A stretch of DNA of 40,618 nucleotides from the IMG/VR virus record IMGVR_UViG_2718218168_000006; one strand, given 5' to 3'. The DNA is from a virus. Taxonomy: Duplodnaviria; Heunggongvirae; Uroviricota; Caudoviricetes. The notes under the pieces were generated by a model. It had not been told where the DNA came from, made no database searches, and was given only the letters and a program-made list of their open reading frames with translations. Within the stretch, counting starts at the first letter, position 1, and the number at the start of each line of letters is the position of its first letter. This document shows, in pieces, positions 25,067 to 25,376 of the stretch. The position numbers were made by a program, and so were the translations under genes.

Positions 25067-25141
25067 TGGAGCGGGCAGCGGGAATCGAACCCGCATCATC
25101 AGCTTGGAAGGCTGAGGTAATAGCCATTATACGATGCCCGC
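25067..25141 (-). tRNA. tRNA-Gly (anticodon UCC), T4-like
   Basis: Cloverleaf GCGGGCA..TCAGC-CTTCCAA-GCTGA..GGGTTCGATTCCCGC..TGCCCGC-T-CCA; closely resembles phage T4 tRNA-Gly. Confidence 0.6.
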
Positions 25142-25144
25142 ATA

Positions 25145-25220
25145 TGGTGCCGACTACCGGAATCGAACTGGTGACCTACTGATTACAAGTCAGTTGCTCT
25201 ACCTACTGAGCTAAGTCGGC
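25145..25220 (-). tRNA. tRNA-Thr (anticodon UGU)
   Basis: GCCGACTTAGCTCAGTAGGTAGAGC..ACTGA-CTTGTAA-TCAGT..CAGTTCGATTCCGG..AGTCGGC-A-CCA. Confidence 0.65.
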
Positions 25221-25222
25221 AC

Positions 25223-25299
25223 TGGACCGCCACCGGGGACTCGAACCTCGCACACTCAACTTAAAGGGTTGACGCTCTTTCCTGATGAGCTAGTGGCGG
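25223..25299 (-). tRNA. atypical tRNA (anticodon loop CCTTTAA, apparent anticodon UUU; C at position 33)
   Basis: 7-bp acceptor stem CCGCCAC/GTGGCGG, T-loop TTCGAGT, encoded CCA; C33 and one T-stem mismatch make identity uncertain. Confidence 0.4.
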
Positions 25300-25300
25300 T

Positions 25301-25376
25301 TGGTGGCCCTTGCTGGATTTGAACCAGCGACCTGGCGATTATGAGTCGCTCGCTCTCACCACTGAGCTAAAGGGCC
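25301..25376 (-). tRNA. tRNA-Ile2/Met (anticodon CAU), ileX/ileZ-like
   Basis: GGCCCTTTAGCTCAGTGGTGAGAGC..CTCATAA..GGTTCAAATCC..AAGGGCC-A-CCA; resembles E. coli ileX. Confidence 0.7.

Follow-up and report, generated by a model that had tools for sequence, protein, structure and literature searches.

We investigated the tRNA genes in a stretch of 40,618 nucleotides from a Caudoviricetes virus (IMG/VR record IMGVR_UViG_2718218168_000006), the whole of which is called the window below. ARAGORN found exactly four tRNAs in the window, lying side by side as one cassette (Table 1). All four genes are on the minus strand, giving a transcription order of CAU, UUU, UGU and UCC, and successive genes are separated by spacers of only 1, 2 and 3 nt. 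The CCA end is encoded in each of them. An earlier note on this DNA, made by reading the sequence, had given the same coordinates, the same four anticodons and a spacing of 1-3 nt, and ARAGORN agrees on every point. The cloverleaves proposed there likewise stand, as all four genes exceed the gathering score of the Rfam tRNA model (RF00005, 29 bits). The minus-strand placement of the genes is absent from that account.

The cassette itself is not new, as RefSeq annotation of it exists already: PGAP calls the CAU gene tRNA-Ile and the UUU gene tRNA-Lys. Among 5426 complete E. coli genomes, about 280-300 have the cassette, which is nearly unchanged across at least six unrelated flank contexts and is also found in the deposited phage genomes PhiR47_1, vB_EcoM-606R7 and vB_EcoS-689R5.

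Table 1. Coordinates of the cassette tRNAs and of neighbouring features in the window, in order of transcription.
Feature	Position	Strand	Evidence and remarks
Q antiterminator gene	27170..27520	minus	Upstream of cassette; Pfam Phage_antitermQ, E = 3.6e-26, on remaining 81-aa ORF
Terminator-like hairpin AAACCCGC-ATCAA-GCGGGTTT with T-run	25501..25521	minus	Terminator scan; ~125 nt upstream of first tRNA
Sigma-70-type promoter TTGCAA-17 nt-TATTAT	25386..25414	minus	Promoter scan; ends 9 nt before 5' end of first tRNA
tRNA-Ile2 (CAU)	25301-25376	minus	ARAGORN (Met/Ile2); Rfam 72.5 bits; reads AUA
Atypical UUU tRNA (Lys*)	25223-25299	minus	ARAGORN Lys(UUU); Rfam 44.4 bits
tRNA-Thr(UGU)	25145-25220	minus	ARAGORN; Rfam 73.8 bits; reads ACA/ACG
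tRNA-Gly(UCC)	25067-25141	minus	ARAGORN; Rfam 64.9 bits; reads GGA/GGG
Structured spacer, tRNA-Gly to holin gene	24840..25064	minus	RNA fold and sequence reading
Class II holin gene	24559..24774	minus	First lysis gene downstream of cassette; ORF list and annotation of near-identical relative

Genomic surroundings of the cassette

The cassette occupies the slot downstream of the Q antiterminator gene and ahead of the holin gene, on the late-gene strand, which bears out its earlier placement in the late region. The same slot, from Q to the lysis genes (or stx), also holds tRNAs in Stx, PPompW, YeP1 and PhiR47_1 phages. In the window the Q gene is frameshifted, with one G fewer in a G-run than in strain 537-20 and with two in-frame stops; this single-base loss could be a sequencing error. 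A Pfam search with the three plus-strand ORFs beside the cassette returned no match.

Upstream of ileZ, the hexamers and spacing of the sigma-70-type promoter (TTGCAN/TTGAAG/TTGATT, 17 nt, TATTAT) are kept in about 25 otherwise differing upstream sequences, including those of Stx phages, and we infer that this element is the cassette's own promoter. The terminator-like hairpin further upstream recurs in the PPompW and M6 contexts, again ahead of the cassette, and is probably a tR'-type terminator that keeps transcription from upstream out of the cassette. Downstream, the spacer that separates tRNA-Gly from the holin gene has long hairpins at three places (about 25064-25015, 25006-24936 and 24935-24883) and, at 24859-24840, a short terminator-like element, GCCCGC-UUUU-GCGG-U6. 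The predicted RNA fold of 24775-25066 (minus strand) has an energy of -96 kcal/mol (z = -5.3 against shuffles), and a simple terminator scan made no call at the sites in this spacer. In a lysogen, a spacer folded in this way may stop transcription from the tRNA promoter ahead of the lysis genes.

Origins of the Ile2, Thr and Gly tRNAs

The first gene is identical in 76/76 positions to ileZ of Stx phages, and identical also to the PPompW copy, while it matches the host K-12 genes ileX and ileY in 69/76 and 70/76 positions, respectively. The CAU anticodon of tRNA-Ile2 is converted to lysidine-AU by the host enzyme TilS, which uses the C4-G69 and C5-G68 pairs of this tRNA. The acceptor stem of the cassette gene (GGCCC...GGGCC) has the same GGCCC start as ileX and ileY. 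The CAU anticodon on an ileX/ileY-type body with the TilS pairs identifies the gene as tRNA-Ile2, with a predicted lysidine.

The other two regular genes are exact copies of host tRNAs, tRNA-Thr(UGU) of K-12 thrU (76/76) and tRNA-Gly(UCC) of K-12 glyT (75/75). We searched the flanks of both for remnants of the host thrU-tyrU-glyT-thrT operon and found none; the mature tRNA sequences alone match.

The earlier note had described the Gly tRNA, and by its heading a second one, as resembling those of phage T4, and had likened the cluster to that of T4 rather than to the ileZ-argN-argO set of Stx phages. Neither comparison holds. T4 tRNA-Gly matches the cassette gene in only 63/75 positions and T4 tRNA-Thr in 62/76 (82-84%), against complete identity to the host genes, and T4 tRNA-Ile is far more divergent from its counterpart. 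The cassette Gly and Thr tRNAs resemble those of T4 because they are exact copies of glyT and thrU, which the T4 tRNAs also resemble. The identity of the first gene to ileZ, the argN/Arg(UCU) scaffold of the second, the shared slot and the conserved promoter all place the cassette with the Stx-phage set. Tight spacing is no mark of T4 either, as the host gene pairs valT-lysW and valZ-lysY are also 2-3 nt apart. Direct alignment against host and Stx genes excluded T4 tRNAs as the closest relatives of those in the cassette.

Structure of the UUU tRNA

The second gene, here called Lys*, has the anticodon loop C32-C33-U34-U35-U36-A37-A38, closed by a 5-bp stem (UCAAC/GUUGA), so that the C33 and the UUU anticodon had been read correctly in the earlier note. 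Other registers of the loop (a UUA or CUU anticodon, an 8- or 9-nt loop) were excluded by inspection, having no alternative closing pair. U33 is present in 113 of the 122 unique tRNA sequences from all loci fetched, and all nine exceptions belong to the scaffold sub-family of Lys*. A scan of a genome collection for the UUU anticodon arm gave two matches, in E. coli and Shigella only.

The body of Lys* is that of the Arg(UCU)/argN family, with C1-G72 and U73, and is unrelated to that of host lysT, with which it has only universal tRNA positions in common. U34, U35 and U36 are the main LysRS identity elements; Lys* has all three of these, and U73 in place of the A73 discriminator. Lys* has a D-loop (AUCAGGAAA) and a T-loop (UUCGAGU), and its covariance score lies above the threshold, but two features of canonical elongator tRNAs are missing: U33, and a T stem of five pairs, as an A51.C63 mismatch replaces the A51-U63 pair of the Arg(UCU) sister. 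The minimum free energy fold of Lys* is not a cloverleaf, which lies 2.7 kcal/mol higher; that of argN is not a cloverleaf either, and that of host lysT differs from it too.

Rfam scores fall from 57.8 bits in the Arg(UCU) sister and 53.6 in argN to 44.4 in Lys* and 33.3 in the M6 allele, and the UUU allele of PPompW, in which a D-stem base is deleted, is undetectable by the Rfam tRNA model. The 97.4% and 96.1% UUU-lineage alleles have no PGAP annotation, and in E. coli roughly one in two alleles of that lineage is further decayed and unannotated. On these grounds, we lean towards Lys* being weakened or decaying. It is not obviously a dead gene, to judge from its pattern of change: two stem pairs, 7-66 and 30-40, have changed compensatorily relative to argN, and among 16 copies of the four-tRNA cassette, whose overall divergence is low, Lys* shows 4 differences, no excess over Thr (4) and Gly (10).

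Descent of Lys* from an arginine tRNA

We identified a sister cassette in E. coli Br_190_kylling (NZ_CP182387.1), with the order Ile2-Arg(UCU)-Thr(UGU)-Gly(UCC) and the same spacing of 1, 2 and 3 nt. Its second tRNA is a regular Arg(UCU), its loop reading CUUCUAA and its T stem fully paired. One scaffold carries UCG, UCU and UUU anticodons in different members. At the level of sequence, these genes establish an ancestral cassette of the order Ile2-Arg-Thr-Gly, whose tRNA-Arg(UCU) gave rise to Lys* via the changes U33C, C35U and U63C. Following known synthetase rules, C35U would have removed the main ArgRS identity element and created the main LysRS element, so that Lys*, if charged at all, would carry lysine. 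This would make it a natural case of a change in tRNA amino-acid identity, from Arg to Lys, by point mutation of the anticodon.

Codon use and a probable supply of scarce tRNAs

We compared codon use in the prophage with that in a sample of K-12 genes. AUA is 2.6-fold enriched in the prophage (p = 6e-5), ACA+ACG 1.8-fold (p = 2e-8) and GGA+GGG 1.8-fold (p = 4e-8). The view that several of the cassette anticodons read codons rare in the host is therefore sound for these three sets. For AAA+AAG, the ratio was 1.1-fold and not significant. The most over-used rare codons of the prophage are AGA/AGG, at 3.9-fold.

The explanation that we favour, with moderate confidence, is that of a self-promoted lambdoid rare-codon tRNA cassette, with one anticodon-switched member that is probably a weakened by-product. 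One precursor would be made from the sigma-70 promoter and, after induction, also by Q-dependent read-through, and RNase P and 3' exonucleases would cut it into four CCA-ended tRNAs. Ile2, Thr(UGU) and Gly(UCC) would then top up scarce host tRNAs for codons about twice as common in the prophage. Lys* would most likely be a harmless by-product en route to decay and not a specialised decoder, because charging with lysine would serve only AAA and AAG, which are already well supplied. The major capsid gene contains no AUA, ACA or AGA codons, so any benefit would fall on less optimised genes.

Two observations sit less easily with this explanation. AGA/AGG are the most over-used of the rare codons, yet Arg(UCU) is the function that was lost, which would not be expected if codon supply were under strong selection. 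Codon supply would also leave as coincidence that Lys(UUU), Thr(UGU) and Gly(UCC) of the cassette are the very tRNAs that suffer most from the PARIS and P2 OLD nucleases. Taken as a whole, the cluster is an ordinary prophage tRNA cassette, widespread and already annotated, whose simplest reading is as a source of scarce tRNAs.

Alternative explanations

The overlap with nuclease targets suggests a different role, that of a counter-defence reservoir of tRNAs that keeps translation going under the abortive-infection nucleases of the host or of rival prophages. Lys* would be a nuclease-insensitive tRNA-Lys(UUU) on an unrelated Arg body, and Thr(UGU) and Gly(UCC) would replenish the two tRNAs that P2 OLD depletes most when it attacks lambdoid phages. 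We consider this unlikely, although several features of Lys* are consistent with it. AriB of PARIS targets Lys(UUU), Thr(UGU) and Asn(GUU), and requires U36-A-A-U39-C40|A41, U39A abolishing cleavage (PMC12409363); Lys* has G39-U40-U41 at these positions. For P2 OLD, Thr(UGU) is the preferred target, Gly(UCC) is depleted as well and Lys(UUU) is cleaved; the nuclease depends on CNG motifs within the anticodon stem (PMC12445682; bioRxiv 10.64898/2026.07.10.737580), of which the stem of Lys* has none. PrrC cuts 3' of U33 (PMC2610378), where Lys* has C33. AAA and AAG are not rare, so that codon supply gives a Lys tRNA no reason to stay, and Lys* is invariant over many flank contexts. Other lambdoid phages carry Asn(GUU) and Thr(UGU) in the same slot, the Asn tRNA being without codon rationale (PMC3636060).

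Against such a reservoir, an anticodon arm predicted to avoid the nucleases, of the kind known from T5 tRNA-Lys, is found in Lys* and not in Thr and Gly, which are host-identical and thus keep their CNG motifs, and additional E. coli Thr(UGU) brought no relief from OLD (bioRxiv 10.64898/2026.07.10.737580). C33, A51.C63 and a discriminator other than A73 normally weaken a tRNA, and the further decay of about half of the UUU-lineage alleles points the same way. The resistance of Lys* is a prediction from its sequence, and AriB also reads distal features (PMC12409363).

The strongest form of this idea, in which Lys* is a selected "body-swapped" lysine tRNA, made from Arg(UCU), that goes unseen by PrrC, AriB and P2 OLD and would let late translation be completed in defended hosts, seems quite doubtful to us. 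More remote is a link to the tail-chaperone gene, whose A-AAA-AAG -1 frameshift site (at about 14254) is decoded entirely by tRNA-Lys(UUU) and might be tuned by Lys*. The cassette is found in many unrelated downstream contexts, which counts against such a link. If Lys* is both functional and nuclease-resistant, temperate lambdoid phages would share the counter-defence logic of T5, and tRNAs without codon-usage rationale downstream of Q would be accounted for.

It is also rather improbable that the cassette is a leftover within a defective (cryptic) prophage, useless to phage or host, with Lys* as a pseudogene. The frameshift in Q and the reduced Rfam score of Lys* could be read in this way, as could clearly decayed cassettes elsewhere: in one other strain the Ile2 and Thr genes are riddled with changes, and in another Lys* and Thr are no longer annotated. 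However, all of the genes but Lys* match functional tRNAs perfectly, the conserved promoter is intact, the three deposited phage genomes carry the same cassette, and the base missing from Q may be a sequencing error.

Finally, there is next to no chance that the cluster was gained from a T-even phage, as the earlier note leaned towards, since the tight packing, the CAU, UGU and UCC anticodons (with UCU in the ancestral cassette) and the 82-84% identity of Gly and Thr that it would explain are outweighed by complete identities to thrU, glyT and Stx ileZ, the much greater divergence of T4 tRNA-Ile, a different gene order, and a lambdoid slot and promoter.

Comparison with known tRNA cassettes

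Among the closest known systems is the ileZ-argN-argO cassette of Stx phages (933W type; Stx2a_WGPS8, AP012540), which shares the slot, the upstream promoter and the entire first gene, and whose second gene is likewise built on the CCGCCAY scaffold, with C1-G72 and U73. It differs in its second tRNA, UCG with U33 as opposed to UUU with C33, in its argO (UCU), replaced here by the host-identical Thr(UGU) and Gly(UCC), and in its spacers of 7 and 13 nt as opposed to 1-3 nt. By gene content, the present cassette is a variant of this lambdoid type downstream of Q and not the canonical set, because the second gene is UUU/C33 and Thr and Gly stand third and fourth, instead of argN and argO. Its placement in the Stx-phage family, as a member that has gained two host-identical genes in exchange, and not with T4-like clusters, is a useful correction.

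The sister cassette of Br_190_kylling has a second gene 88% identical to Lys*, with the same acceptor stem and the same 3' strand of the anticodon stem. In contrast, its Thr and Gly carry a small number of changes from the host genes, some of them compensatory, and the ileZ promoter context is missing upstream of it. The PPompW-type cassette (E. coli O145/O157 prophages, LC567822) shares ileZ and the UUU/C33 lineage, with two differences only, but its UUU gene is followed by an argO-like Arg(UCU) and not by Thr and Gly. The T4 cluster is alike in its tight packing and in CAU, UGU and UCC (together with the UCU of the ancestral cassette), all of which read A-ending codons; the ancestral anticodons CAU, UCU, UGU and UCC are a subset of those of the eight T4 tRNAs. 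The gene order and the genomic context are different, however, and neither the T4 stable RNAs nor segB are present. This overlap in anticodons is a functional parallel and not a mark of common descent.

Wider interest is confined to the second gene, with its Arg-to-Lys switch, its rare C33 and an anticodon from the set of nuclease targets. Like T5 tRNA-Lys(UUU) in its encounter with AriB of PARIS, Lys* is phage-borne and has an anticodon arm unlike that of the host at the positions read by the nuclease. Unlike the nuclease-resistant phage tRNAs, it came from an Arg tRNA through an anticodon switch and not from a Lys tRNA that diverged, it combines C33 with a mismatched T stem, and its resistance is a prediction. 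The tRNA-Thr(UGU) species of T4, Bas32 and HK446 are resistant to P2 OLD, whereas the Thr copy here is host-identical and predicted to be sensitive.

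Four tRNA genes form a compact cassette in a lambdoid prophage

ARAGORN called four tRNA genes, and no others, across the 40.6-kb window, and all four passed the threshold of the Rfam tRNA model (29 bits), confirming the packing, coordinates and anticodons proposed in the earlier note, where the strand was unstated. All four lie on the minus strand, and are thus transcribed in the order CAU, UUU, UGU, UCC, with spacers of 1, 2 and 3 nt and an encoded CCA end in each gene. RefSeq (PGAP) annotation of the cassette already contains tRNA-Ile, -Lys, -Thr and -Gly. Of 5426 complete E. 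coli genomes, 302 matched a 701-bp query around the cassette over 80% or more of its length, and the cassette was found at 98.5-99.7% identity in three deposited phage genomes.

Features of the window in and around the tRNA cassette
Feature	Position	Strand	Evidence
tRNA-Gly(UCC)	25067-25141	-	ARAGORN; Rfam 64.9 bits
tRNA-Thr(UGU)	25145-25220	-	ARAGORN; Rfam 73.8 bits
tRNA-Lys(UUU), atypical	25223-25299	-	ARAGORN; Rfam 44.4 bits
tRNA-Met/Ile(CAU)	25301-25376	-	ARAGORN; Rfam 72.5 bits
predicted sigma-70-type promoter, TTGCAA-17-TATTAT	25414-25386	-	promoter scan; ends 9 nt before first tRNA
intrinsic-terminator-like hairpin	25521-25501	-	terminator scan; upstream of cassette
structured spacer stretch	24840-25064	-	ends in GCCCGC-UUUU-GCGG-U6 terminator-like element
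three ORFs between Q and cassette	25633-26520, 26524-26769, 26770-27156	+	opposite late genes
sok antitoxin RNA	30136-30311	-	Rfam, 112 bits; hokD-like ORF adjacent
DicF sRNA	36063-36114	+	Rfam, 76.7 bits
'IS009' RNA	41-239	-	Rfam, 229 bits; tail-fibre end

An E. coli prophage of the lambda-like (lambdoid) type makes up the window, which runs from tail-fibre genes to the integrase gene and contains a cI/Cro region, DicF, hok/sok, RusA, Q, lysis genes, and head and tail genes of HK97 and lambda type, respectively. The sok, DicF and 'IS009' RNAs are usual cargo of Qin/Rac-type prophages. The closest related prophage, in E. coli 537-20 (NZ_CP091534.1 2922229-2962846), is annotated between potB and potC; the relationship is mosaic, with blocks 94-99.5% identical and a differing segment at ~30332-31928 of the window.

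The cassette is on the late-gene strand, with the Q antiterminator gene (27170-27520) upstream and the holin gene (24774-24559) downstream. Compared with the otherwise identical 537-20 gene, Q lacks one G from a G6 run (27480-27486, -), introducing two in-frame stops and leaving an ORF of only 81 aa; this may reflect a prophage defective in late-gene expression, or a homopolymer sequencing error. None of the three plus-strand ORFs matched Pfam, and a 295-aa protein of this block matches the PADLOC candidate defence family PDC-S42 (E = 2.9e-53), placing a candidate defence gene directly beside the tRNA cassette.

Predicted expression signals

The two hexamers of the predicted promoter, and the distance between them, recur upstream of ileZ in approximately 25 otherwise divergent sequences, Stx phages included, and this conserved footprint suggests that the cassette is transcribed as a separate unit within the late operon. 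Downstream, the 290-nt tRNA-Gly-holin spacer folds (-96 kcal/mol, z = -5.3) into three long hairpins and the short terminator-like element, and an Rfam search of it matched no family. We infer that these predicted structures would end transcription of the cassette ahead of the lysis genes in the lysogen; the spacer may represent either a stack of terminators or a small RNA that lacks annotation.

Origins of the Ile2, Thr and Gly tRNAs

The CAU gene is identical (76/76) both to ileZ of the Stx phage Stx2a_WGPS8 (AP012540) and to the PPompW copy (LC567822), compared with 69/76 for host ileX and 70/76 for ileY, and on sequence is a tRNA-Ile2, not a Met tRNA. The tRNA-Thr and tRNA-Gly are exact copies of K-12 thrU (76/76) and glyT (75/75) from base 1 through CCA (window 25067-25220), with no flanking sequence of the host thrU-tyrU-glyT-thrT operon beside them. 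In that operon tyrU separates thrU and glyT, whereas the cassette lacks tyrU and its Thr and Gly genes are 3 nt apart. The pair could have arisen by an old capture followed by turnover of the flanks, by gene conversion, or through an RNA-mediated event.

Origin of the UUU gene

The C33 and UUU anticodon that the earlier note had read in the atypical gene were borne out, as the loop C-C-U-U-U-A-A closes on a 5-bp stem. Across all loci fetched, U33 is present in 113 of 122 unique tRNA sequences, and all nine exceptions fall in the sub-family sharing this scaffold. The body of the gene is unrelated to host lysT by alignment, but is alignable with Stx-phage argN, with which it has the acceptor CCGCCA(Y), C1-G72 and U73 in common. 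An IMG/VR scan for the scaffold identified 120 loci, with the anticodons UCG (argN), UCU, UUU and a few odd ones. The most telling relative is in E. coli Br_190_kylling (NZ_CP182387.1), which carries an Ile2-Arg(UCU)-Thr-Gly cassette with the same 1/2/3 nt spacing, in which the second gene is 88% identical to the UUU gene, with the loop CUUCUAA and a perfect T stem.

The UUU lineage is set apart by three changes, U33C, C35U and U63C, the last producing A51.C63. C35 is the main determinant for ArgRS, and U35 for LysRS; by these rules, arginine identity should be gone, with lysine accepted if the tRNA is charged at all. The gene is an Arg tRNA switched to a Lys anticodon, with C33, and has probably been weakened. 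Three further tRNA-like genes, in YeP1 (L005 1502-1579) and two IMG/VR loci (L076, L129), have the same CCGCCAC scaffold with A33, the odd loops CAUUGCC or CAUAUAA, and UUG or UAU anticodons; the YeP1 gene scores below the Rfam gathering threshold. Changes in the anticodon loop seem to arise readily in the second slot of these cassettes, by decay or diversification.

Is the UUU gene functional?

In favour of function, the gene remains above the Rfam threshold, shows compensatory changes relative to argN at pairs 7-66 and 30-40, and is unchanged in most of the 18 cassette copies compared, which span at least six unrelated flank contexts; its changes across these copies are no more than in neighbouring genes. 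Weakening is indicated by Rfam scores falling from Arg(UCU) (57.8 bits) and argN (53.6) through the UUU gene (44.4) to the M6 allele (33.3), and the PPompW allele has a D-stem deletion and is undetectable by the model. Among complete E. coli genomes, 278 contain the intact allele (at least 99% identity), and in 472 the best match lies at 95-99%; in sampled rows of this band only the 98.7% allele is annotated, whereas PGAP does not call those at 97.4% and 96.1% as tRNAs. That the lineage occurs, among species-representative genomes, in only E. coli and Shigella also counts towards weakening. We consider this tRNA weakened and its activity uncertain; it is more probably a by-product that is tolerated than a decoder with a specialised role.

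Elsewhere in the window, the minus-strand tail assembly chaperone gene terminates in GTT AAA AAA AAG TAG (~14244-14254), and the -1 frame stays open beyond it. This is a predicted site of programmed -1 frameshifting of the G/GT type, with A-AAA-AAG as its slippery sequence; tRNA-Lys(UUU), whose anticodon the cassette gene shares, reads both of the slippery codons.

Codon supply and counter-defence

Relative to 21 ordinary K-12 genes (Fisher test), the prophage is enriched in AUA (2.6-fold, p = 6e-5), ACA+ACG (1.8-fold, p = 2e-8), GGA+GGG (1.8-fold, p = 4e-8) and AGA+AGG (3.9-fold, p = 2e-9), but not significantly in AAA+AAG (1.1-fold); in ribosomal-protein genes these rare codons are all but absent. 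Codon supply therefore suits the Ile2, Thr and Gly genes, and the ancestral Arg(UCU) as well, but does not account for the Lys anticodon. Most likely, the cassette would supply scarce tRNAs from a self-promoted unit.

The main rival, a counter-defence role against tRNA nucleases, appears unlikely. P2 OLD is the classic anti-lambda system. It destroys Thr(UGU) first; Gly(UCC) is also depleted and Lys(UUU) cut, recognition being through CNG motifs of the anticodon stem (PMC12445682; bioRxiv 10.64898/2026.07.10.737580). PARIS AriB targets Lys(UUU), Thr(UGU) and Asn(GUU), requiring U36-A-A-U39-C40|A41 (PMC12409363), and PrrC cleaves 3' of U33 (PMC2610378). We retain this rival because the UUU gene differs from host tRNA-Lys at every AriB, P2 OLD and PrrC site; other lambdoid phages also carry Asn(GUU) and Thr(UGU) downstream of Q, the Asn gene without a codon rationale (PMC3636060). 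However, the host-identical Thr and Gly tRNAs are predicted to be nuclease-sensitive, and extra E. coli Thr(UGU) does not rescue phages from OLD (bioRxiv 10.64898/2026.07.10.737580). Scarce-tRNA supply remains the preferred reading, and the cassette is of modest interest overall, or more if the UUU tRNA proved charged and nuclease-resistant.

Comparison with known tRNA cassettes

A T4 interpretation is unsupported: the likeness of the Gly and Thr genes to T4 is real, but is secondary to their identity with host glyT and thrU, T4 matching at only 63/75 and 62/76 and its tRNA-Ile being more distant still. Nor is the tight spacing a T4 trait, since host valT-lysW and valZ-lysY are also 2-3 nt apart. 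Each anticodon of the ancestral cassette (CAU, UCU, UGU and UCC) also occurs among the eight T4 tRNAs, a functional parallel, not shared ancestry. Stx phages carry ileZ-argN-argO, and PPompW, YeP1 and PhiR47_1 other tRNA sets, in the same slot downstream of Q; the cassette is a lambdoid tRNA cassette of this position, related to ileZ-argN-argO.
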